From assembly GCA_964449815.1 (NCBI GenBank), contig CAYVGC010000005.1, positions 1,275 through 65,274 of the forward strand: 64,000 bases of DNA, read 5' to 3'. The stretch is from an uncultured Bifidobacteriaceae bacterium. Its GTDB lineage: Bacteria; Verrucomicrobiota; Verrucomicrobiia; Limisphaerales; UBA11358. Positions within the stretch are counted from its first letter, which is position 1. Every line of letters begins with the position of its first letter. Under the pieces are notes generated by a model. The model saw nothing but the letters and a program-made list of their open reading frames with translations. It searched no databases and was not told the origin of the DNA. Positions 990 through 52,499 of this stretch are shown here, one piece after another. Made by a program: the position numbers and the translations under genes.

Positions 990-1082
990 TTTAGAGACTC
1001 GGTAACTCCGTTTTCCGCGTTTTGAAAATGGTTGTATCAGCGGAGCGGAATTGGTGCGACAATACGGTGCCGGTTTTTCACC

Positions 1083-1784
1083 ATGCATATTTCATCCGCC
1101 ATTTTTGATTGCAGCGCGCCGGCTCTGGATTCGTGTCCGGACGAGTCGCTGCCGGAATTCGCCTTCATCGGTCGCTCGAACGTCGGCAAGTCCTCGCTGC
1201 TGAATCTGCTCGCCGGCCAAGACGGTTTGGCCCGCGTCTCGCCCACACCGGGGTTCACCAAGCTCATCAATTTTTTCACGATGAACAAAACCTGGCGGCT
1301 GGTGGATCTGCCGGGCTATGGTTTCGCCGAAGGGGCGAAGAAGGACAGCGCGCGATTTAATCAGGCGGTGTCACATTATCTGAAGCGGCGCACGAATCTC
1401 TGCCTGGTCTTTGCGCTCATTGATTCCGGGCTTGCGCCGCAGGCAATGGACGTGGAGTTCGTCGAATGGCTCGCGCGCAACGCCGTGCCGTTCGTCCTCG
1501 TCTTCACCAAAACCGACAAGGAACCGCCCGCGACGGTGCAGGCGAACATCGCGGCGTTCACGGCGCGCATCGCCGGCTGGTTCGAGCAGCCGCCGGCAGT
1601 TTTCACCTGTTCCGCGACGGCGGAGCAAGGCCGGCAGGAATTGCTTGGCGTGATTGACGAGGCGATGACGGCGATCCAGGCTGAATCAAATCAGGCGCCG
1701 GTCGCTTCCGATGGTTTGACAGCCCCAAGCCTGCAGGCAAAGGCAACCCGCAAAAGCCGCCCCGACCTGTCACGCCCTTGGTGA
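1083..1784 (+). CDS. engB: Ribosome-biogenesis GTPase EngB/YsxC/YihA
   Basis: G1 motif GRSNVGKSSLLN, G3 motif DLPGYGF and G4 motif TKTDK, with spacing typical of EngB. Start chosen at the internal ATG 1083 (MHISSAIFD...). Confidence 0.85.
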   Translation: MHISSAIFDCSAPALDSCPDESLPEFAFIGRSNVGKSSLLNLLAGQDGLARVSPTPGFTKLINFFTMNKTWRLVDLPGYGFAEGAKKDSARFNQAVSHYLKRRTNLCLVFALIDSGLAPQAMDVEFVEWLARNAVPFVLVFTKTDKEPPATVQANIAAFTARIAGWFEQPPAVFTCSATAEQGRQELLGVIDEAMTAIQAESNQAPVASDGLTAPSLQAKATRKSRPDLSRPW

Positions 1785-2529: not shown

Positions 2530-3225
2530 CTATCCAATTTGAATTGAATAAGTCTCAAGGCACATTTTTGCCCGGACAACTTTGGTTTCTGATAGGCCAA
2601 CTGCATCAAGTGCCTTGCGGATGTATAGCTCCTCCAAAGGGCAGCTGTAGCCAAGAATTACTTTCATCAAGAAATGGTCGGGAATCCGCTTAAAGTAGTG
2701 CCCACCCGAAATGTCGCAATCTTTGAGATCGAGAAAAACACGATATTCCCGTTCATAAGACCAGCCGGTTGATTTTTGCCGCAATAATTGATTCATCAGC
2801 GGCTTTGCATAGCTTTCAAAACCACCAGGGTCGTGAAGACGATTTGCATCAAAAACAGGGCGAGCATTTGTATATTCCATTTTGACAAGCCGTTCAGGAT
2901 CGAGAATGTAGCTGAACTCAAATGCAACACCTTGATGCTTGTCGGCATAGTGTGACCAAAGAACTGGATCAGTGATTGTATCGCTCAAGCAAAAAACACC
3001 CATCCATCCGTTCACCTCGTCAATAAACTCTTGCATGCACGTCCGCGCAACGATTTCACCTTCGGGAATTATATTTGAAATTCCCATGCGCCATTCAAAT
3101 GGATCATTGAAATCACAAAGCCTCCCGATTTTGAAGGCACGCGACTCGATGGTCTTTAATGCCGCCGCCGCATCCAAGTAGCGATATAGAAGAATCGAAC
3201 TTGGTGCGGCGGCGTTCATTGTCAA
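2530..3225 (-). CDS. DUF2971-family protein
   Basis: N-terminus LYRYLDAAAALKTIESRAFKIGRLCDFNDPFEW matches the DUF2971 pattern as I remember it (Y..l....l..l....l.fs....fNDPfE). Visibly AT-richer than its neighbours. Starts 4 bp downstream of the argG stop. Confidence 0.6.
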   Translation of the reverse strand: MTMNAAAPSSILLYRYLDAAAALKTIESRAFKIGRLCDFNDPFEWRMGISNIIPEGEIVARTCMQEFIDEVNGWMGVFCLSDTITDPVLWSHYADKHQGVAFEFSYILDPERLVKMEYTNARPVFDANRLHDPGGFESYAKPLMNQLLRQKSTGWSYEREYRVFLDLKDCDISGGHYFKRIPDHFLMKVILGYSCPLEELYIRKALDAVGLSETKVVRAKMCLETYSIQIG

Positions 3226-4716: not shown

Positions 4717-5559
4717 TCAGGGCGGAAAACCAATCGCCAGCTTCACGGCGGAATACTCCGGGTGAATTTTCCCGTCGCGTGCGCGGATGATGAGCGGCGG
4801 CTCGGCCCAGGTCTGCCCGCGAAACCATTCCGGCAAATCGTCCGCACGCATCATTCCGAACAACGCAACCAGCGCCGGATCACCTTCGCGGAAAACCACC
4901 GGGCGTTTGCGGACGATGACCAGAGCCGAGTTTTTTGCGGCGGCTTCGACGCGCGCAAGCTGCGCGGGCTCATGCGGAAACACGCACGCGAAAAATCCGC
5001 CGGGCGCGAGCCGCCTTGCCGCCGTGGCGCAGTAATCGGCAATCGTTCCGCGCAGTTCAAACCGGCAGGCAAGTTTCTGAGGATGTTCGCTTTTCACGCC
5101 CGCGCCTGGCGGAAAATACGGCGGGCTGCCGGTGATGAGGTCGAATTTTTCGTCGGCGCGGAAAAAGTTTGGGTCGCGGAAATCGCCTTCCCGGATTTCA
5201 TAGCGGCCGGCCAGCCCGTTGTAACCCGCGGATTTTCTGGCGAGCGCGGCGCTTTCACTTTGCGCCTCAATGGTCACAAACTTTGCGCCGGGCAGACGCC
5301 ACGCGCAAATCATGCCGACGGTGCCGATGCCGCCACCGAGATCCAGCGCCGTGCGCGCCGCCGGACACCAAGTCGTGCCATACCATGCCGTCAAAATATC
5401 GTCGGTGGAAAACCGGTGGCCGGCGCGCAGTTGGAACAGCCGGAAATGTCCGCTGATGGCGTCGAGCGTTTCATGCGGTTCAAGCGTCACGTCCGCCGCG
5501 AGTCCCGGCGGCACCGGGCCGGGCTTGGCCCAGCCTTTGAAATGCGTTTCGCTTTTCAC
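4717..5559 (-). CDS. Class I SAM-dependent methyltransferase (TrmN6/YfiC-like, SPPY motif)
   Basis: LDLGGGIGTVG (motif I) and DLITGSPPYF (motif IV). GTG start at 5559 forms a GTGA overlap with the upstream CDF transporter stop. The longer ORF to 5751 overlaps that gene and has an Arg/Pro-rich, non-protein-like N-terminus. Confidence 0.7.
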   Translation of the reverse strand: MKSETHFKGWAKPGPVPPGLAADVTLEPHETLDAISGHFRLFQLRAGHRFSTDDILTAWYGTTWCPAARTALDLGGGIGTVGMICAWRLPGAKFVTIEAQSESAALARKSAGYNGLAGRYEIREGDFRDPNFFRADEKFDLITGSPPYFPPGAGVKSEHPQKLACRFELRGTIADYCATAARRLAPGGFFACVFPHEPAQLARVEAAAKNSALVIVRKRPVVFREGDPALVALFGMMRADDLPEWFRGQTWAEPPLIIRARDGKIHPEYSAVKLAIGFPP

Positions 5560-6500
5560 GACGGAGACTTTTTTGCCGCGACGCCCAGCGGCTCGACGTG
5601 GACGAGCACGTCGCGGACGGACGGAATTTCCGTGCGCACCTTGTTTTTCACCTCGTGGCCGATGCGGTGGGAATTTTCCACCGTCATCTGCGGGTTCACT
5701 TCCAGGTGCATGTCCACGAAAAACTGGTAGCCCATCTTGCGCACGAAACATTTTTCCACGCCGTCCACGCCGGGAATGGTTTCCGCCACGGCGCGGATTT
5801 TCTCGATGAGTTCACGGTCAGGCGAGCGGTCCATCAGCTCGTTCACCGCCGGCAGCAGCAGCCGCCAGCCGTTCCACGCGATGACGGCGGCGGCGGCAAC
5901 CGCCGCCCAGTTGTCCGCCGTTTCGTAGCCTTTGCCGCCGACGAGGGAGATGCTGATGCCCAGAAATGCGGCGGACGACGTGATGGCGTCGCTGCGGTGG
6001 TGCCACGCGTCGGTGGCCATGGCGGAACTTTCCACCGTCGCGGATTCATGGAGCACAAAGCGGAACAAAAATTCTTTCACCGCTATCACCCCGATTAAAA
6101 TGATCAGCGTGAACGGCGATGGCGCGAGGCGGGGTGCGTTCAAAACATGCAGCGCAGCAAATGCAATCCAGCAGCCGGCGAGCAGCAGCATGACTGAAAC
6201 GGTCGCGGCGGCGATGGGTTCGGCCTTGCCGTGGCCGTAAGGGTGATCTTCGTCCGGCGGCGTCTCGGCGACGACGAGGCCGCGCCACACGATGATGGAA
6301 CTGAAAATGTCCGCGAGCGATTCCACCGCGTCTGCGATGAGCGCCTGCGAATGACCGAGGATGCCCGCCAGCAATTTCGCCACGACCAGCGCCACGTTCG
6401 CGGCAAGACCGAGGAACGTGGCGCGGAGACTGCGTTGCAGGCGGGCGGATGACACGCGGAGATAGTAGCGGCTGGGTGCGGCCGTCGCAACGGCGCTCAC
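5556..6500 (-). CDS. Cation diffusion facilitator (CDF) family metal efflux transporter
   Basis: ALIADAVESLADIFSS, HPYGHGKAEP and a C-terminal cytoplasmic domain typical of CzcD/FieF-type CDF proteins. Multiple TM segments. Confidence 0.85.
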   Translation of the reverse strand: MSAVATAAPSRYYLRVSSARLQRSLRATFLGLAANVALVVAKLLAGILGHSQALIADAVESLADIFSSIIVWRGLVVAETPPDEDHPYGHGKAEPIAAATVSVMLLLAGCWIAFAALHVLNAPRLAPSPFTLIILIGVIAVKEFLFRFVLHESATVESSAMATDAWHHRSDAITSSAAFLGISISLVGGKGYETADNWAAVAAAAVIAWNGWRLLLPAVNELMDRSPDRELIEKIRAVAETIPGVDGVEKCFVRKMGYQFFVDMHLEVNPQMTVENSHRIGHEVKNKVRTEIPSVRDVLVHVEPLGVAAKKSPS

Positions 6501-18273: not shown

Positions 18274-18548
18274 TTTCAAACCTTCCACGTCAACGGCTCC
18301 ATGCCGACCGCGCGCCGCGAACGCGAACTGCGCGACTTCCGGGCGGCGGCGCGGGCCGTGGTATCCAATGCCCGCTGTTTGACGGAAGGCGTGGATGTTC
18401 CCGCCGTGGACATGGTCGCGTTCCTTTCGCCGCGCCGCGCCGGGTGGACATTGTGCAAGCCACCGGCCGCGCCATGCGCCGCTCGCCGGGAAAAACCACC
18501 GGCTATGTGCTGGTGCCGCTGTATGTCGAATTGTCTGCCGGCGAATGC

Positions 18549-18708: not shown

Positions 18709-18726
18709 CGGAGTCGCGGAGCGACG

Positions 18727-18891
18727 GCAGATAGTAGCCCACGGCGCGAGCCGTGGGTTAAACGAACCAAACGAATCCAGCCCCGGAGGGGGCGAAAGAA
18801 GATTACCGGCGGCTGGTTTTCTGTCGCCCCATCCGGGGCTTGGATGGTGTTGACGACCAGACCCACGGTTTCACCGTGGGCTACTATCTGC
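18727..18891. mobile_element. 165-bp MITE-like element with perfect 18-bp terminal inverted repeats
   Basis: GCAGATAGTAGCCCACGG (18727-18744) is the exact reverse complement of CCGTGGGCTACTATCTGC (18874-18891). Each end also forms a local CCCACGG...CCGTGGG hairpin. No coding capacity. Confidence 0.7.
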
Positions 18892-19084
18892 CGCGCCTCC
18901 GGCGCTGGAGCCGGCCGTGCGCCAGGGTGGCCGGCGGTAAAGACCCGGCCAAAGGCAGTTTGAGGTGGACGAACGGGGCAAAGGGCGTTTGAAATTACGA
19001 GCGTGTTTCGTGCGCGTTGAAAAAGCGGTGGAGGGCCACCGCACTCCAAGACGCTGGCGCGTTGACCGAGGGCCATCGAACCGC

Positions 19085-21880: not shown

Positions 21881-22260
21881 GTAGGAGACGAGGTGATGAG
21901 TCTCTAACTTGAAAATAAATTTGGGGCGTCATATTTGAGACTTCTCACGTCGTCTCCTACATTCCGTTGACAATAGCCCAGCCATTTATGGCTGGGTTCA
22001 CGTTTCGGCAACATCCAAAGTCCCGTCCAGGGACGGCAGAATCTTTGCAATTGCCGGGATTTCTTTCGTCCCTGCCGGGACTTGGTTGGATAGGTCCGAC
22101 GATGCCCAGCCATAAATGGCTGGGTTATTTTCGTGGCGTTCCCCAGCGCCATCGGCGCGGCATCTATTGTAGAACCCCAAACCAAAATAAAATCAGCCCC
22201 GTCGGGGCGGCATATCCCCCACATTCCCGGGATGTCGCTCCTATCGGAGCTTGATTCAGT
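21881..22260. repeat. Patchwork of short palindromic REP/MITE-like elements
   Basis: Inverted repeat GTAGGAGACGAGGTGATGAGTCTC (21881-21904) / GAGACTTCTCACGTCGTCTCCTAC (21937-21960), matching at 21 of 24 positions. Hairpins CCCAGCCATTTATGGCTGGG (21977-21996) and CCCAGCCATAAATGGCTGGG (22105-22124). GTCCCGTCCAGGGACGG and GTCCCTGCCGGGAC hairpins lie between them. Only repeat-driven ORFs on both strands. Confidence 0.7.
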
Positions 22261-22798
22261 TTGTTGGCGCAAGCTACAACGATGTCAGCCCTGCGGGCTT
22301 GGCGGCCAATTTCCTTTCGTGTGCTTGGTGTGTTTCGTGGTTAAAATCCGGCCCCGGCCTTTTACCCGTCGTCGGTCTTTGCAGACGACCACCATTTTGG
22401 TTTGGTTTGGAATCTGCGTCCAAACCTTGCGGCTGCGAGATAAAATTTCCGCCACCCCTTCACGGTGGAATTATTTTTGGGGACGTTTTCCCGACGTAGG
22501 AACTGGCGCACCAACACCGGGTTAATATCCGCAGCACCTTCAGGGCTTCGGTTTGGTTGCGCGAGAATTCCTAAAAATCTGTGTTTATCTGTGTGCATCT
22601 GTGGCGGGTTTAATAAAACCCTTTGTTTATTAGGGTTTGCTCGCCGGATGGACGGCCACTGTCAGCAAAAGTGTCAGTCACGGGGCGGATGGTAATACAA
22701 TTCGCCAAAACTGGCCAGAACTTGCTGAAACTTTGCCACAACGCGCGTTCTAAACCGCCGTTGAAACAGGACTGGTATCTCGACAGAGAAAGCCAGTT

Positions 22799-23824
22799 AT
22801 GAAAACGAAATACACCTTGTTCCGGCGCGGCGAAATGTTCTACATGCAGGACAGCGCGACCGGCAAACAGACCAGCCTACGCACCAAAGACGAAACCGAG
22901 GCCAAGAGCCTTTTGGAAGCCCGCAACGCGGCGCAGCGCCAGCCAGTGCTGAATTTGCACCTTGCCCGCGCCTACCTGACAGCCAGCGACCCCGCCTTTG
23001 TGGAACGCACTTGGCAGGTTGTCATGGAACAGATGCAGAGCCGAGGCAAGGACAGCAGCCGCGAGCGTTACGCCAGCGTGTTCAAGTCGCCCAGCTTCGA
23101 CGGCTTGCGAAACAAGAAATTGATGGAAACCACCGCCGACGATTTCTTTGCCGTGTTCAAACAAAACAAAGTCGCCATTAACGAGTTTTTGAAACGGCTG
23201 CATAATTTCGCCGTGCATCTTGGCTGGATTGCCATTCCCATCATTGCGCCCTACCTGTGGCCGAAATACGAACCCAAAGACCGGCGCGGCATCACGCAGG
23301 CCGAGCATGAAAGCGTTTTGCAGAAGGAGAAAAACGCCGAGTGGAAATTGTATCTGGAATTGCTTTGGGAAACCGGCGCGGCGCAGAGCGACGCGGTTAA
23401 TTTCAAGGCCGAGGACATTGACTGGCAGAGCCGGACAATTTCTTATTTCCGAATGAAAACCGGCTCGCTGGCACAGTTCACCATTAGCAAGGCACTGGAA
23501 ACGGTTTTAAGCCATTTGCCGACCACCGGCGCATTGTTCCCGAAGTTGTCCACGTTCACGGCAAACGACCGCGCCAGCCGTTTCCGCCGCCGTTGCCACA
23601 AGGCAGGCGTGACCGGCGTAACGCTCCATTGTTACCGCTACGCATGGGCGGAACGGGCAAAAGTTGTCGGGATGCCGGAACGGTTTGCCCAGGCTGCGCT
23701 TGGGCATAACAGCAAGGCGATTCACCGCGCCTATGCGAAAAAGGCAATCATCGTCGCGCCATCCCTTGAAGAATACGAAGCAAAGGCAGCAGCAGCCACG
23801 CAGCAAAAACTGGTTGCGGCCTAA
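22799..23824 (+). CDS. Tyrosine-type site-specific integrase (integrase 1)
   Basis: C-terminal catalytic region: LHCYRYAWAERA (HxxR) and LGHNSKAIHRAYAK (His/Tyr). At the first-Arg box it reads WETGAAQSD, so Arg I may be substituted. Confidence 0.75.
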   Translation: MKTKYTLFRRGEMFYMQDSATGKQTSLRTKDETEAKSLLEARNAAQRQPVLNLHLARAYLTASDPAFVERTWQVVMEQMQSRGKDSSRERYASVFKSPSFDGLRNKKLMETTADDFFAVFKQNKVAINEFLKRLHNFAVHLGWIAIPIIAPYLWPKYEPKDRRGITQAEHESVLQKEKNAEWKLYLELLWETGAAQSDAVNFKAEDIDWQSRTISYFRMKTGSLAQFTISKALETVLSHLPTTGALFPKLSTFTANDRASRFRRRCHKAGVTGVTLHCYRYAWAERAKVVGMPERFAQAALGHNSKAIHRAYAKKAIIVAPSLEEYEAKAAAATQQKLVAA

Positions 23825-28146: not shown

Positions 28147-28470
28147 GATTTAGACCTTAAAACTCACTGTTGATTGAACGGCTATTTGTCCCGATTTCTA
28201 CTGCTTGTGGTTTTAGAATTCTTTTGCTACTACGGAATCAAGAAAAGCCGCATTTTTTACACAGTCACTTACACATACACAGTTTGCACCAGAAAAACTC
28301 ATTTTAATTCAAGGTGGTTGCGCTAGACCTAAAAGGACTTAAAAGCAAATCGTAGAAATCTAAAAAGCGCCTAAAACCCTAGTAAAACCGCCGTTTTTTC
28401 GTTGCCCGAACCGTTAAAATGTGTTACACATTACTTACACACTTTTGGTGGCTTTTTTAGGGGGGAAATC

Positions 28471-29679
28471 ATGCCAGAGCATCACCGTTTGATGGACGGA
28501 AAGCTTCATCTATACCGCCGCGAAAATAGCAGCTATTGGCAGTGTTCCACCTATCTCAATGAGAAGAACTGGCGCATATCCACAAAGGAGGACAGTCTTG
28601 CCTTGGCGAAAGATATAGCCTTGGACTGGTATCTCGGCTTGCGCGGCAAAAGTCGCAATGGCGATTTGAAAACCGGCAAAACCTTCAAAGATGCAGCCGT
28701 AAAATTCGTCGCCGAATATGCCATACTCACAGCCGGAGAACGCAACGCGCAATACGTGAAGGGACTCGGCGAAAAAATTAAACTTCATCTGATACCGTTT
28801 TTTGGCGACAAAGTTTTGTCCGAAATCACCCCCGGCCTGGTGCAGGAGTATCGCATCCACCGCGCAACATCGCGGATAAATCCAAAGACTGGTCAACCAA
28901 AACGACCGACACGCAGCACACTTCACAAAGAGATCGTGACGTTGCGGCACGTTTTGAAAACGGCCAACCGTCACGGATGGTTGCCCTACTTACCCGACCT
29001 CTCCGCACCCTACAAAACTTCGGGAAAGGTTACACATCGCGCTTGGTTTTCCCCGGAAGAATACAAGCGGCTTTACGACGCCACGCGCGAACGTGCGAAA
29101 CATCCCAAAAAATTACGCTGGAAAACGCAGTGTGAAAACTTCCATGACTACATCCTGTTCATGGCAAACACCGGGTTAAGGCCGGATGAAGCCATCCGCC
29201 TCGAATTTCGAGACGTTGCCATCGTCACCGATGAAGCAACGGGCGAACGCATCCTCGAAATCGAGGTTCGGGGAAAACGCGGTGTCGGCTACTGCAAAAG
29301 TATGCCCGGCGCTGTCCTACCCTTTGAGCGTTTGAAGAAACGCAAGCGGCCAGCGACGACTGACAGAGTTTTCGGAAAAACACAACATGAGCTGCTAAAC
29401 GCAATTCTCAAAGAATTGAATTTGAAATTTGATCGCGACGGCAACCGGCGCACCGCATACAGTTTGCGTCACACCTACATTTGTATGCGCCTCATGGAAG
29501 GAGCGGACATTTACCAAGTCGCAAAAAACTGCCGCACTAGCGTTGAAATGATCGAAAAATACTACGCTTCACATATTAAAAACACGCTGGACGCAGCGGC
29601 AATCAACGTGCGGAAGCCGAAACCGCCCAAGAAAAAACGCGCCACGCCCCGAAAAGACGAAAAAGACCCAGCAAATTGA
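28471..29679 (+). CDS. Tyrosine-type site-specific integrase (integrase 2)
   Basis: ATG 28471 is preceded by AGGGGGGAAA. Motifs: ANTGLRPDEA (Arg I), VRGKRG (Lys), YSLRHTYICMRL (box II Arg-His), VEMIEKYYASH (Tyr). It ends 53 bp before the tRNA-Leu gene. Confidence 0.85.
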   Translation: MPEHHRLMDGKLHLYRRENSSYWQCSTYLNEKNWRISTKEDSLALAKDIALDWYLGLRGKSRNGDLKTGKTFKDAAVKFVAEYAILTAGERNAQYVKGLGEKIKLHLIPFFGDKVLSEITPGLVQEYRIHRATSRINPKTGQPKRPTRSTLHKEIVTLRHVLKTANRHGWLPYLPDLSAPYKTSGKVTHRAWFSPEEYKRLYDATRERAKHPKKLRWKTQCENFHDYILFMANTGLRPDEAIRLEFRDVAIVTDEATGERILEIEVRGKRGVGYCKSMPGAVLPFERLKKRKRPATTDRVFGKTQHELLNAILKELNLKFDRDGNRRTAYSLRHTYICMRLMEGADIYQVAKNCRTSVEMIEKYYASHIKNTLDAAAINVRKPKPPKKKRATPRKDEKDPAN

Positions 29680-31132: not shown

Positions 31133-32035
31133 TCACATTTCAATTTCCGGCCCGTCCTTTTGACGGGTCTTGTCCACCAGCTTCCGCCAAGAGTCTTTAA
31201 CCACCGTCGCGGCTTGTTCCCGGATGCGGGACATGAAGGTGATGGATTTTTCCCACCATGTTCCACCCATCCCCACTTGCGCCACTTCGCCGCGCTTCAA
31301 TACGGCCCTCATCATGGCCTTAACTTCGTTCATCATTTTCACTTCCCGGACGGCCTTGAACCGCTCCGGGTCTTGCAGGATGCCCTTGCGCTTCATGGCC
31401 GTTGCTTCCTTGCCGATTTTCGGCTGCGGAATCTGGTCAATGCCCCGGTCTTTGAGCGACCGATGATCCACCCGTTCCGGGCGTCCGGCCTTTTCCAAGG
31501 CGGCATTGACGGCGTCAGCCCAGGACTGGCGTTGCCTGACCAGCAACCCCTTGTCATTCCATTCCCGTGGTTTCTTGGCGCTGAATTTTTCGCCGTCTAG
31601 CTTCCGCATGGTGCAGAGGATATGCACATGGGGATTCTTGCCAGCCTTATCATGATGGAGGGAGATTTCGGCAACCATGCCGGAAGCGACCAGCTCTTTT
31701 TTGGCCCAATCCAGCGCCGTCTGGAATTGGGCATCGGCGGGCAGTTCCTTGGGAACCGCCAGAATAAACTCGCGTGCAAGTTGTGCATCAACCCGCTTCT
31801 CGCCCGCCTCGACTTTGTTCCAAAGCGCCCCCGAATCATGCACCCATCCGGGCGCACCGTCGGGGGCTAAAATGTCCGAATGGATGACGCCCTTGGCTCG
31901 GCGGGCGTAGTCGAAAATTTTGTCACGAATCTCATCCTTGAGCTTCGTGCCTGCCCGATACGCGGCGGCGGCAATGACCGACCGCCCCCGCTTCTCGCGG
32001 CTGAAAATCTTCGCCTCTAGTCTAAATATCGCCAT
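31133..32035 (-). CDS. MobA/MobL (MOBQ-type) relaxase
   Basis: The N-terminus MAIFRLEAKIFSREKRGRSVIAAAAYRAG carries the catalytic Tyr region. ISLHHDKAGKNPHVHIL is the HxDxxxxNxHxH 3-His metal motif typical of MobA/MobL relaxases. Confidence 0.85.
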   Translation of the reverse strand: MAIFRLEAKIFSREKRGRSVIAAAAYRAGTKLKDEIRDKIFDYARRAKGVIHSDILAPDGAPGWVHDSGALWNKVEAGEKRVDAQLAREFILAVPKELPADAQFQTALDWAKKELVASGMVAEISLHHDKAGKNPHVHILCTMRKLDGEKFSAKKPREWNDKGLLVRQRQSWADAVNAALEKAGRPERVDHRSLKDRGIDQIPQPKIGKEATAMKRKGILQDPERFKAVREVKMMNEVKAMMRAVLKRGEVAQVGMGGTWWEKSITFMSRIREQAATVVKDSWRKLVDKTRQKDGPEIEM

Positions 32036-48864: not shown

Positions 48865-49145
48865 AACCATTCAAATTTGCGGCTGGACTGGCAACGGTTC
48901 AGCCGCACACTGTCAGTGAAAGTGTCAGTTAAAGCACCGAAAAGTTAGCAAAAATAGTGACGAGTTAGAGCGAATTTGCATTGTTTAATCAATGGTTTTC
49001 GCTAGTTTATTGAAATCTGATTTAGATATACAGACTGTGTTCATCTGTGGCCCACCCCATCCGCATTGCGCCCCTGCACGCCAATCGTGGTTAATTTTCC
49101 CGAAACAGGACACTTTTTATCCCAAAAACGAGGATTCCAAGTTCT

Positions 49146-49418
49146 GTGTTTATAAGCACAGCGCCTGTGTTTGCAAGCACGGTCATTTTGTTTGCAATCA
49201 GAAAAATCGGGTTTGCAAGCCCGCTAACTGTGTTTGGAAACCGAATGGTCGTGTGGATAAACAACGTCGCCATGTTTGCCAGCAGCATCGTCGTGTTTGC
49301 CTTCACGCTGATCGGGTTTGGAAACACCGGAACCGTGTCGCGAAACCCAAAGGCTTTGTTTGCAAACAGAACCAGCGGGTTGGCAATCCGGCCGTTTGGG
49401 TCGGCAATCAAATCGTTC
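49146..49418. repeat. Tandem array of 13 degenerate 21-bp units, core (G/T)TGTTTGCAA plus a variable ~11 nt
   Basis: Core starts are at 49146, 49167, 49188, 49209, 49230, 49251, 49272, 49293, 49314, 49335, 49356, 49377 and 49398. The spacing is exactly 21 bp throughout with no indels. It produces open frames on both strands (48992..49432, 49146..49436, 49091..49543). Confidence 0.9.
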
Positions 49419-49911
49419 CCGGCCCCCGTTAAATGAAGTTTCCTGCCTCCTGATTTCTGCCGGGCGCGGAACCCTTTTGCGCCTTGGCGTTGAATTCCGT
49501 CCGTATTCCCGCTGATGTCGCTCCTAAACGGAGCTTCGTCCATTTGTGATTGGCGGTGCTACAAATTTACTGCGCCGCTGGCGCAAACCGGCGGGTGCTG
49601 CGGGGAAAATTCGGGGGAAATGATGAAGGCTGAAACGGGGCGTTTTCGCTATTTTGCGTGTTTGGCGGTTGATTTCGGCTTTTTTAGCAATTTCTGCTCC
49701 GCGCGACCGTCGGCTTGGACTGCAAGCACATGAGCTGACGCTTCAAGCATGTCGGCTGAAGCGACCAATGAAAACCCCGTTCCCGCTGTCTGGCAAATAG
49801 TCGCCAGCAGCACGGCATTCCATTCCGTTCAAGCGTTCAGGTGGCGGACACCTCCGCAACAGGAGGTGTGCAAAAAAAACACGGCGCGAACCGTGGGTGG
49901 TGAAATGGCTT

Positions 49912-50661
49912 TCAGCCTTTTGGCCGGATCTTTTTCCAGAGCCAGCCGAACGGATCATAGAATTCATCCACGACGCGCTCTTTCAAGGGAATGATCGCGT
50001 TGTCGGTGATGGTGATGTTTTCCGGACAGACTTTCGTGCAGCACTTGGTGATGTTGCAAAAGCCGATGCCCTGCGCCTGCTTGAGTTCCGGCAGCCGGTC
50101 TTCCGTGTCGAGCGGGTGCATCTCCAGCGCGGCGGCATAGACGAGGAAGCGCGGGCCGATGAATTCCTCGTGCTTGTGATGGTCGCGCAAAACGTGGCAG
50201 ACGTCCTGGCAGAGAAAGCATTCGATGCACTTGCGGAGTTCCTGCACGCGGTCCACGTCTTCCTGCTGCATCCGCCAGGTGCCGTCCGGCGCGTCGGGGG
50301 CGCGGGGCTTGAATTTTTTGATCTTGGTTTTGACGCGGAAATTCCATGACACATCTGTCGCCAGATCGCGGACGCTGGGAAAAGCGCGCATCGGTTCAAT
50401 GGTGACGGGCTTGCTGGTGTCGAGCGTGTCCATGCGCGTCATGCACATGAGCCTGGGCATGCCGTTGACTTCCGCCGAGCAGGAGCCGCATTTGCCGGCC
50501 TTGCAGTTCCAGCGGACGGCGAGATCGTTGGCCTGCGTCGCCTGGATTTTGTGGACGACGTCGAGAACGACGAGACCTTCCGTGATTTCCGTGGTGTAAT
50601 CCACGAACTTGCCGCCGCCGTTTTCATCCGTGCGCCAGATTCTGAAAGTGACAGTTTTCAT
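49912..50661 (-). CDS. sdhB: Succinate dehydrogenase/fumarate reductase iron-sulfur subunit
   Basis: 2Fe-2S motif CKAGKCGSCSAEVNG...LMC and the 4Fe-4S/3Fe-4S Cys clusters CIECFLCQDVC and CTKVCP. Confidence 0.9.
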   Translation of the reverse strand: MKTVTFRIWRTDENGGGKFVDYTTEITEGLVVLDVVHKIQATQANDLAVRWNCKAGKCGSCSAEVNGMPRLMCMTRMDTLDTSKPVTIEPMRAFPSVRDLATDVSWNFRVKTKIKKFKPRAPDAPDGTWRMQQEDVDRVQELRKCIECFLCQDVCHVLRDHHKHEEFIGPRFLVYAAALEMHPLDTEDRLPELKQAQGIGFCNITKCCTKVCPENITITDNAIIPLKERVVDEFYDPFGWLWKKIRPKG

Positions 50662-50672
50662 CGTGTCAAAGG

Positions 50673-52499
50673 CTAGTTCTTCATCTCCTCGATGACTTGT
50701 TTCAATTCCGCCGGCATCGGCGGAATCGGTTCGCGCCGCAGCTTCATCGAGCCGTCGGCCGCCTTGGCCAGCACGGTGTTATATTTCGCCGCCTCCGGAT
50801 CCTTGTTGGGAAAATCATCACGAAAATGGCCGCCCCGGCTTTCCTTGCGGTCCATCGCCGATTTCGTGATCGCCTCGGAAACGGTGAGCAGATGCTTGAG
50901 ATCCAGCGCCGTGTGCCAGCCCGGATTGTATTCGCGGTGGCCTTGGACGCCGACTTTCGCGGCGCGAACCTTGAGCTTGCCGATGCCGTCCAGCGCCTGC
51001 TCCATTTCTTTTTGGAGGCGGACGATGCCGACGAGTTGCTGCATCATGTTCTGCAAGTCGTATTGCACCTGGTAAGGCCCTTCGCCGGCGCCGCCGGCGG
51101 GACGTTCAAACGGTGCCACGGCTTCGCGGTAGGCGGCTTCGACTTCGGCGTCGCTGACGGAAATGCCGGGATTGGCCTGCGCATATTTCGCGGCGTGTTC
51201 GCCGGCGCGCTGGCCGAAGACAATGAGGTCGGAAAGGGAATTGCCGCCAAGGCGGTTGGCACCGTGCAAACCGGCGGCGCACTCACCGGCCGCGAAAAGT
51301 CCGGGGACATTGGTTGCCTGCGTGTCGCCGTTCACGCGGATGCCGCCCATCGCGTAATGCGTGGTCGGGCCGATTTCCATCGGCTCCTTGGTGATGTCGA
51401 GATTGGCCAGTTGCATGAACTGGTGATACATCGAAGGCAGTTTGCGTTTGATGTGTTCGGCCGCGTTCGGAAGTTTTTCCTTGATCCAGGCAATGTCGAG
51501 GAAAACGCCGCCGTGCGGGCTGCCGCGACCGGCCTTGACTTCGCGCATGATGCAGCGCGCCACATGGTCGCGCGTGAGCAACTCCGGCGGCCGCTTGGCG
51601 TCTTTGTCGCCCTGCGTGTAGCGCCAGCCTTCTTCGGGATCGGTCGAGGTCTGCGATTTGTAAAGATCCGGGACGTCGTCGAACATGAAGCGCTTGCCGT
51701 CCTTGTTTTTGAGGACGCCGCCTTCGCCGCGCACGCCTTCGGTCACGAGAATGCCCATGACGCTCGGCGGCCAGATCATGCCGGTCGGATGAAACTGGAT
51801 GAATTCCATGTCCAGCAATTCCGCGCCCGCGTGATACGCCAGCGAAACGCCGTCGCCGGTGCCTTCCCAGGAATTGCTCGTGATTTTGTAGGCGCGGCCC
51901 AGTCCGCCGGTGCAAAGCACAACGGCCTTGGCCTTGAAAATGCGGAAACGTCCGCGCTCGCGGTCGTAGCCAAACGCGCCCACGACGCGCTCGCCGTCCT
52001 TGAGCAGCGAAACGATGGTCTGTTCCATGTGAACCGAAATGCCCTGATGAATGCCGTGATCCTGCAACGTGCGAATCAATTCCAAGCCCGTGCGGTCGCC
52101 GACGTGCGCGAGCCGCGGATAACGATGGCCGCCGAAATTGCGCTGGAGAATCTTGCCGTCTTTCGTCCGATCAAACACCGCGCCCCAGGCTTCCAGTTCG
52201 TGAACGCGCGCCGGCGCCTCCTTCGCGTGCAGCTCGGCCATGCGCCAATTGTTGACGTATTGTCCGCCGCGCATCGTGTCGGCAAAATGGACCTTCCAGT
52301 TGTCGCGGTCGTCCACGTTGCCCATCGCCGCCGCCATGCCGCCTTCGGCCATGACGGTGTGCGCCTTGCCGAGCAGCGATTTGCAGATCAAACCGACTTT
52401 GACGCCGGCGGCCGAGGCTTCAATCGCCGCGCGCAGGCCCGCGCCGCCCGCGCCGATGACCAGCACGTCGTATTCGTGAGTTTCGTAATTGGTAGCCAC
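50673..52499 (-). CDS. sdhA: Succinate dehydrogenase/fumarate reductase flavoprotein subunit
   Basis: YDVLVIGAGGAGLRAAIEA FAD-binding fold, HTVMAEGG (FAD-linked His region) and HPTG. 608 aa. Confidence 0.92.
   Translation of the reverse strand: MATNYETHEYDVLVIGAGGAGLRAAIEASAAGVKVGLICKSLLGKAHTVMAEGGMAAAMGNVDDRDNWKVHFADTMRGGQYVNNWRMAELHAKEAPARVHELEAWGAVFDRTKDGKILQRNFGGHRYPRLAHVGDRTGLELIRTLQDHGIHQGISVHMEQTIVSLLKDGERVVGAFGYDRERGRFRIFKAKAVVLCTGGLGRAYKITSNSWEGTGDGVSLAYHAGAELLDMEFIQFHPTGMIWPPSVMGILVTEGVRGEGGVLKNKDGKRFMFDDVPDLYKSQTSTDPEEGWRYTQGDKDAKRPPELLTRDHVARCIMREVKAGRGSPHGGVFLDIAWIKEKLPNAAEHIKRKLPSMYHQFMQLANLDITKEPMEIGPTTHYAMGGIRVNGDTQATNVPGLFAAGECAAGLHGANRLGGNSLSDLIVFGQRAGEHAAKYAQANPGISVSDAEVEAAYREAVAPFERPAGGAGEGPYQVQYDLQNMMQQLVGIVRLQKEMEQALDGIGKLKVRAAKVGVQGHREYNPGWHTALDLKHLLTVSEAITKSAMDRKESRGGHFRDDFPNKDPEAAKYNTVLAKAADGSMKLRREPIPPMPAELKQVIEEMKN

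Follow-up and report, generated by a model that had tools for sequence, protein, structure and literature searches.

The window analysed here, a 64,000-nt stretch of contig CAYVGC010000005.1 (assembly GCA_964449815.1), contains at nt 49146–49418 an array of 13 consecutive 21-bp units (273 nt) lying between a mobile island on its left and genes of the sdh operon on its right. The array is given as plus strand, the orientation that faces a promoter and a gene in related loci. The flanking genes on the right were sdhCAB, all on the minus strand; sdhB (49912–50661), encoding the Fe-S subunit of succinate dehydrogenase/fumarate reductase, is convergent with the promoter-facing side of the array, which now abuts the 3′-end of the operon, and a terminator-like hairpin was located beyond sdhB at 49895–49880 on the minus strand. 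By its SdhB protein the organism falls among metagenome-assembled genomes of Verrucomicrobia subdivision 3, the closest species representative having 94% identity. On the left, an integrative mobilizable element of 26.4 kb occupied 22606–49034, with the attachment (att) core located 95 bp left of unit 1; the array thus lies on the chromosomal side of the att core and was retained in L003, a strain without the region 22606–49034, so that the original prediction had rightly placed the repeats just outside the right end of the island.

Reading the sequence from nt 49146 in steps of 21 bp confirmed the 13 units first noticed in the original prediction. Unit positions 3–4 (G-T) and 12 (C) were invariant across the 13 units of the window, most of the information resided in positions 1–10 (consensus GTGTTTGCAA), and positions 13–21 were variable. 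The conserved core GTGTTTGCAAnC was a near-palindrome, with a 14-bp form, GTGTTTGCAAACAC, and a variable spacer of 7–9 nt; this near-palindromicity over 14 bp had been missed earlier. Owing to the strong divergence of its units, the array escaped Tandem Repeats Finder at a score of at least 30. In a lag-identity scan of the whole 64 kb (lags 4–63), only two loci reached an identity of at least 0.5, both at lags of 21, 42 and 63, namely the array (0.57) and a second array at about nt 2060–2370 (see below). The core was not enriched elsewhere in the 64-kb window (14 one-mismatch matches versus 8.3 expected, 8 of them inside the array). The GC content of the array was 0.45–0.51, and no AT-rich block was seen in its flanks. 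The left flank (49091–49145, plus strand), where homology with other copies begins, contained a short inverted repeat, GGACA-CTTTT-TATCC, at 49108–49122; the right flank (49419–49478, plus strand) contained GTTAAATGAAgTTTCC ... CCGGGCGCGGAACCC-TTTT at 49460–49479, a terminator-like CGGG...CCCG-TTTTT element that closes the block.

Seven further copies of the array, sharing 73% to 95% identity, were obtained from other metagenomes (L199 and L219 to L224). L199 came from scanning metagenomes for runs of three cores at 21-bp intervals, a permissive pattern for which the matches listed were mostly unrelated repeats, L199 being the true homologue among them; L219 to L222 were the contigs of the four short relatives returned by an exhaustive HMMER search with a 150-aa open reading frame (ORF) predicted on the array; L223 and L224 were found via the neighbouring gene. 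None of the 14 pattern matches in viral contigs was homologous to the array, and no homologous array was located downstream of sdhB in 80 species-level sdhB loci, among which only L030 carried a 21-bp array, an unrelated one. All eight copies, that of the window included, had 13 units and 273 nt and were orthologous unit by unit. Pairwise alignments of the array among the seven clean copies contained no gaps, and the sole array indels were a -1/+1 pair in L222, an error-prone long-read-style contig in which the neighbouring gene was also frameshifted. As controls from the same loci, an adjacent 253-nt intergenic stretch showed 1–3 gaps per pair at similar identity and the 55-nt left flank 0–2 gaps per pair, except that the near-identical pair L223/L224 had none anywhere; the neighbouring protein gene, like the array, was gap-free in every pair. 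Maintenance of the array register while the flanking non-coding DNA gains indels indicates that the register is under selection, as had been argued earlier from its perfection in the window. Indels or a variable register in relatives, the marks of a plain minisatellite, were looked for in the homologous copies and were absent from the clean ones. Across four DNA metagenomes covering the locus (depth 26–58 in three runs and about 4–7 in one), the array was free of indels and of length variants.

Two causes had been offered for this register, helical phasing or a reading frame, and it was the former that agreed with the symmetry and register of the array, whereas no coding signature was found for the latter. 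If coding, the array would specify a small heptad-repeat protein, either the 150-aa ORF with '(L/F)ANxxxx' heptads (49091–49543, minus strand) called by gene finders or a plus-strand product with 'xxVCKxx' or 'VFAxxxx' heptads. Absence of indels would be expected of a gene, and homology ended at the stop codon of the minus-strand ORF in three copies. Three of the six frames were open in the window because the repeat unit contains no stops, which also explains the ORF call; in the five clean copies compared, the minus '(L/F)ANxxxx' frame alone remained stop-free, but the other initially open frames had gained just 1–2 stops, so the stop counts are weak evidence. The ratio of nonsynonymous to synonymous substitution rates (dN/dS) was 1.04 for the minus-strand frame in these five copies and 0.93 for the plus 'VFA' frame, and substitutions in the nine spacer columns were spread evenly over the three phases (36:29:24). 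Third positions of the L/F-A-N codons (unit positions 3, 6, 9 and 12) had 1, 6, 3 and 0 minimal substitutions, compared with 9.9 per spacer column; several of them are fourfold degenerate, yet they were among the most conserved columns. Three-base periodicity of conservation was considered as a coding sign for xxVCKxx and rejected, as the signal was confined to the core, absent from the spacers and mirror-symmetric.

Other properties of the ORF also differed from those of genes. Codon usage was alien to the host, with GCA for 7 of 15 Ala codons versus 2% in host genes, GGG for 7 of 14 Gly codons versus 6%, over-use of TTT and CTT, and a GC content at third codon positions of 0.58 versus 0.72–0.80. 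ORFs called on the array copies were of 78, 96, 102, 106/150, 133, 136, 192 and 207 aa with unrelated starts and ends, and the only shared ATG lay out of frame in L220 and L221 owing to a 1-nt indel. The xxVCKxx frame had no start codon and contained stops in L199 and L219, and in L225, L226 and L030 the arrays in the corresponding place had all six frames interrupted by stops. A word-indexed search of 5.8 billion proteins with the 150-aa ORF returned only the ORF itself, and there was no Pfam match. With HMMER, large phage-fibre-like proteins carrying xFANxxx heptads were matched at E values from 6e-10 to 5e-4. These proteins (the tail-fibre-like P0006 to P0009) share a 7-residue (L/F)-A-N period with either 'FAN' frame of the array, which unlike them has no coding signature; the matches arise because the palindromic TTTGCAAAC reads F-A-N on both strands, and when it is read in phase a periodic match accumulates score over 12 repeats. 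The same palindrome accounts for the open antiparallel frames. Expression had been suggested as a check, and no transcript of the array was found, for no RNA run contained it, while three metatranscriptomes did cover 49442–50700, including sdhB. A heptad-repeat protein is therefore considered very unlikely, and the 150-aa 'hypothetical protein' that several public assemblies carry at this array most likely reflects misannotation.

The distribution of constraint within the unit pointed to a different function. Minimal substitutions averaged 4.2 per core column versus 9.9 per spacer column, and constraint was mirror-symmetric about positions 7/8 (1/0 for the pair 3/12, 5/4 for 5/10, 6/3 for 6/9 and 6/7 for 7/8). 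The central dinucleotide was self-complementary (GC, AT or CG) in 46 of 60 distinct units versus 30.8 expected, and no compensatory change was observed at the arm positions of the core. Mirror-symmetric constraint and a self-complementary centre, with no compensation, are the signature of a two-fold symmetric protein-binding site rather than of a hairpin or a series of codons. A structured non-coding RNA, such as a protein sponge of 13 hairpins, or intrinsically curved DNA acting with no protein partner might be imagined, as each core could form a hairpin of 5–6 bp, the block has a terminator-like end, and repeats of two helical turns would add up any intrinsic bend; however, five of the six arm pairs showed no covariation and Watson-Crick counts equalled the expectation under independence. 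Folding energy was no better than that of shuffled sequences (z = -1.65 and -0.95), the block had no Rfam match at E ≤ 1, and no RNA run contained it. As for curvature, an exploratory wedge-model estimate on six arrays gave no consistent difference from shuffled or de-phased controls. Such an RNA or bend thus has hardly any likelihood, and these comparisons indicate a non-coding array that acts at the level of the DNA itself.

In the relatives, homology continued to the right of the array in L199 and L220 to L224, through the CGGG...CCCG-TTTTT element and a conserved intergenic region, and reached a conserved gene starting MKKTTVSLAYH... in L199, L220, L222, L223 and L224, the short contig L221 being excepted. 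The gene belongs to a family of 47 clusters encoding proteins of about 215 aa. In the predicted structure of its product (predicted local distance difference test score, pLDDT, 84), the N-terminal half was helical and an FN3 domain followed at the C-terminus; matches to known structures in PDB and BFVD were confined to the FN3 domain, and comparison with these databases recognised no DNA-binding fold in the N-terminal helices. A strict -24/-12 motif, TGGCA[CT]-N5-nnGC[AT], was located 103–115 nt before the start codon in 8 of the 10 loci examined; the opposite strand of the same regions gave no match, and the background was 1 per 57 kb in all DNA fetched. From the array start to this motif the distance was 421 bp (20 × 21 + 1) in L199, L220, L223 and L224, and it was held although the intervening DNA carries compensating indels. 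The motif was followed by a leader of ~106 nt and the 215-aa FN3-domain gene. An array roughly 80–500 bp upstream of a GG-N10-GC (-24/-12) promoter, as expected of a sigma-54 enhancer, was present in the related loci and not in the window. The leader (about 100 nt; L199, L220, L222, L223, L226 and L228) was conserved across distant orthologues, reading GGTGTTCACGG ... GGCCGGATGGCC ..., and contained a short GC-rich inverted repeat that may be a regulatory element of the 5′ untranslated region.

Orthologues of the FN3 gene with 50% to 59% identity (L225 to L228) were also preceded, at the same place, by 21-bp arrays of about 8–17 units with other cores, namely GGTTAAGTCAG in L225, TTAAGTCA in L226, AGCAGCCATCAG in L227, and GTTCATCAAC, with GTTGGCAAAC in some units, in L228 to L230. 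A comparable arrangement was observed in L030 (86% SdhB identity), where nt 4885–6400 contained a 21-bp array with the core AGACTTGAATCT, a sigma-54-type motif, TGGCATGGCTGATGCT, and an unrelated gene of 226 aa; array, motif and two small genes lay directly downstream of sdhB, that is, in the same place and orientation as the array in the window. The L030 gene was considered for the FN3 family but had no detectable homology to it (BLASTP E value 0.18; hhalign probability 1%). These loci show the array as the upstream portion of a module that recurs, made up of a 10-bp × 3 motif, the 21-bp lattice, a sigma-54-type promoter, a leader and a small gene.

This linkage also bears on the analogies with plasmid iterons and partition centromeres drawn in the original prediction. 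Plasmid iterons are direct repeats of 17–22 bp at oriV of RK2, R6K, pPS10, F and P1, and the array (13 × 21 bp) resembles them in being a tandem series in which each unit spans about two helical turns and combines a conserved core with a variable part. Phased centromeres comprise 10 × 11 bp in parC of R1, 4 × 20 bp in pSK41 and 12 × 43 bp in sopC of F, and here the likeness lies in many equally spaced sites expected to load a dimeric protein on one DNA face into a higher-order complex. A replication origin or centromere of a plasmid-derived or integrated element would further agree with the adjoining mobile element and with the presence of one DnaA-box-like unit. The DnaA box pointed out earlier, TGTGGATAA in unit 6 (49252–49260, plus strand), does exist, but only in the window copy; in other copies unit 6 reads GGTGGATAA, TGTTGATAA, TGTTGACAA or TGGCTATAA, and its identity as a DnaA box is therefore not conserved. 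Unlike iterons, the array is chromosomal, each unit is itself palindromic, no AT-rich unwinding element was recognised, and there was no inflection of GC skew at the array; unlike centromeres, it is neither on a plasmid nor inside a mobile element. The genes called around L001 to L004, L220, L222, L223 and L224 showed no Rep-like Pfam domain, and neither parA/parB nor parM/parR was seen near copies with readable flanks, which argues that the array is not an iteron or centromere region, whereas the relatives tie it to a promoter and a gene. Given also its retention in the island-free strain, either analogy is unsupported and extremely unlikely to hold. Repetitive extragenic palindromic sequences and bacterial interspersed mosaic elements (REP/BIME) of enterobacteria and pseudomonads are likewise imperfect palindromes repeated intergenically between convergent genes; the array differs in that its core is not dispersed elsewhere within the 64-kb window, unit number and order are fixed across species, orientation does not alternate, and the period is 21 bp instead of about 35–40 bp.

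In the window, homology to the complete modules ended at nt 49478, 60 bp past unit 13, so that the array is orphaned; promoter, leader and FN3-domain gene are missing from the locus, and neither a -24/-12 motif nor a plus-strand downstream gene was found by eye in 49478–49912. A second orphan was L219, in which homology ended within unit 12/13. The window array is accordingly an orphan that has lost its promoter and gene, its enhancer-like role being a prediction; it may still bind its putative protein or be a recent relic. That it is a decaying, functionless minisatellite relic, belonging to a family that may still work elsewhere, would suit the missing promoter and gene, the end of homology at nt 49478, and a position between convergent genes with no transcript over it. 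Such decay is nevertheless distinctly unlikely, as the array has kept its length of exactly 273 nt, its cores match those of complete modules in quality, its private substitutions fell largely outside the core, and the four metagenomes showed no length polymorphism, data that agree equally with recent orphaning and with continued constraint. At 49514–49534 (plus strand), 36 bp past the homology breakpoint, there is a 20-bp hairpin element, GATGTCGCTCC-loop-GGAGC, of which a copy in the same orientation was located at 22231–22250. Once the island is removed, the two GATGTCGCTCC hairpins bracket the array region (about 840 bp in L003), and the pair may be linked to the rearrangement in which promoter and gene were lost. 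Metatranscriptome contigs (assembled, unstranded) ran 320–470 nt beyond the sdhB stop, through the predicted terminator at 49895–49880, and ended at the edge of the array block.

Dimers of enhancer-binding proteins occupy repeat sites that typically lie 80–150 bp upstream of a -24/-12 promoter, and they contact the polymerase through DNA looping, in which IHF often takes part (PMC7910581, PMC7175178). The interpretation favoured here, for which the scales stand about level, is that the array is an enhancer-like lattice of predicted dimer-binding sites for a sigma-54-type promoter, orphaned in the window. The lattice comprises 13 dyad-symmetric sites, (T)GTGTTTGCAAACAC, at intervals of exactly two helical turns, which places all of them on one side of the helix. 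In the complete locus, represented by five related Verrucomicrobia contigs, the lattice lies at about -150 to -420 of the -24/-12 (sigma-54-type) promoter, which is predicted to drive the 215-aa protein with its helical N-terminal half and C-terminal FN3 domain. A dimeric DNA-binding protein, most likely a sigma-54 enhancer-binding activator or its architectural partner, would occupy the sites cooperatively and act by looping on sigma-54 holoenzyme at the downstream promoter; such a mode of action would account for the constancy of both the internal register and the distance to the promoter. Protein binding, dependence on sigma-54 and activation by looping are thus the predicted parts of this interpretation; the anatomy of the repeats, the conserved register, the lack of a coding signature, the tie between array, -24/-12 motif and gene in relatives, the orphan state of the window copy and the limits of the island are its observed parts.

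The dyad symmetry of the core is that expected of sigma-54 enhancer sites and suits helix-turn-helix dimers. Upstream activating sequences of sigma-54 promoters, such as the NtrC sites at glnAp2 and the NifA sites TGT-N10-ACA, are similarly dyad-symmetric, lie more than 100 bp upstream of -24/-12 and stand in helical phase with the promoter. Several units of the array read (T)GT-N10-AC(A), presumably the outer layout of a NifA site, and this resemblance is to be taken as a lead only. The array differs from these sequences in having 13–17 sites in an unbroken 21-bp lattice over 270–350 bp, in a core that changes from one orthologous locus to the next as period and approximate unit number are retained, and in that the window copy has no promoter. 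No description of such lattices was found in full-text literature searches. It is possible, though doubtful, that they represent an undescribed kind of enhancer, that is, a lattice of 270–350 bp with 13–17 dyad sites in register with a sigma-54 promoter 20 periods downstream, one face of which would be coated by an oligomerising regulator, the core turning over while period and length are kept, and orphans persisting as decoy or titration sites and marking hot spots for islands.

Several observations weigh against the enhancer-like lattice. The sigma-54 enhancers known so far comprise one or a few sites, as against 13–17 here. L225 and L227 had no strict -24/-12 match, and the core sequence differed completely between the more distant orthologous modules, a turnover that would call for a co-evolving binder or for a role resting on the period more than on the sequence. 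No regulator gene was conserved beside the module, its neighbours differed between loci, and a receiver-only response regulator adjoined it in three loci only. In the window, core mismatches numbered 25 versus 18–27 in complete modules, so the cores were no more degraded despite the missing promoter and gene, and the 8 private substitutions of this lineage (2 in the core) are too few to tell relaxed from maintained constraint.

On the same anatomy and register, the protein bound by the lattice might instead serve the promoter region in some other way, as a silencer, as a roadblock or by forming a nucleoid-structuring filament, or the FN3-gene product might autoregulate by way of its helical N-terminal half; in each case, a single face of the DNA would be coated. 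The cores change along with the adjacent gene across orthologous modules, as would be expected of a cis site paired with a trans factor encoded next to it, and the lack of a separate conserved regulator gene points the same way. However, the predicted structure of the product matched FN3 only, with no recognised DNA-binding fold, and activators classically sit where the lattice does, at -150 to -420 of a -24/-12 promoter; this alternative is regarded as unlikely. If the lattice is an enhancer, it would be a long phased platform in which register rather than sequence is conserved, unlike the textbook sigma-54 architecture. In that architecture, two or three sites nucleate one hexamer. The lattice would then offer a natural system for studying how site number and helical phase control the assembly of AAA+ activators and DNA looping, and a handle on regulation in Verrucomicrobia subdivision 3, a group that is abundant in peat and soil and has almost no experimental genetics.

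The island was delimited by an exact-protein look-up of SdhB, which returned four near-identical metagenome contigs. One of them, L003, was more than 99.7% identical over two aligned blocks, yet without the island. The two junctions had in common CTGTGT(G/T)CATCTGTGGC, and the direct repeats were CTGTGTGCATCTGTGGC on the left (22589–22605, plus strand) and, on the right, the att core CTGTGTTCATCTGTGGC (49035–49051, plus strand), which is part of a 3 × 10-bp motif, ATCYGTGTNY. The island encoded a tyrosine integrase (22799–23824), a MobA/MobL relaxase (31133–32035, minus strand), a TraG/TraD-like coupling protein, a sigma-70-like factor, RadC and DUF6573, together with a defence load of AbiV, GmrSD, SNF2 helicase, AAA_13, N6_N4 methylase and type III Res subunit; integrase, relaxase, coupling protein and defence load together identify it as an integrative mobilizable element. 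The motif (ATCYGTGTNY...ATCYGTGG; 22577–22605 and 49035–49051) was also located left of the arrays in L220, L222, L223, L225 and L228, and beyond it in other loci there were often restriction-modification or other defence-type genes. This recurrence suggests that the motif left of the arrays may be a recurrent integration hot spot; in the window, the motif is where a mobilizable defence island is attached. Between the island's right end and the DNA left of the motif in L199, L219, L220 and L222 there was no homology. Near both island ends, at about nt 22660 and about nt 48908, CACTGTCAG(C/T)(A/G)AAAGTGTCAGT occurred in the same orientation and may represent arm sites of the integrase. Inside the island, just after the ORF at 28402–29679, Rfam detected a group I intron (RF00028; 29757–29951, plus strand; 56 bits, above the gathering score).

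The second array of the window, at 2083–2313, comprised about 11 units, again of 21 bp, whose core, TAGACCGTGTTCCG, was a different one and not palindromic, and lay between a convergent pair, an ORF at 1032–1784 (plus strand), GTPase-like on reading its sequence, and a DUF2971 gene at 2530–3225 (minus strand). No -24/-12 motif was seen by eye near it, and motifs resembling AGACTTGAAT, the core of the L030 array, were located just upstream, at about nt 1800–1900. Arrays in which a TTTGCAA core recurs in strict 21-bp phase between variable spacers were also present in L128 (10082–10417), L216, L161, L147 and L131/L132; these contigs were unrelated (GC 0.32–0.58), except that L128 was homologous to L216, and since they were selected by the search pattern their frequency is uninformative. 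Elsewhere in the window, ARAGORN made an odd and dubious 97-nt 'tRNA-Val(gac)' call at 18345–18441, and two matches to the small RNA Acido-Lenti-1 (RF01687) were found in inverted orientation at 18712–18757 (minus strand) and 18862–18906 (plus strand), with scores of 55 and 47 bits, respectively.

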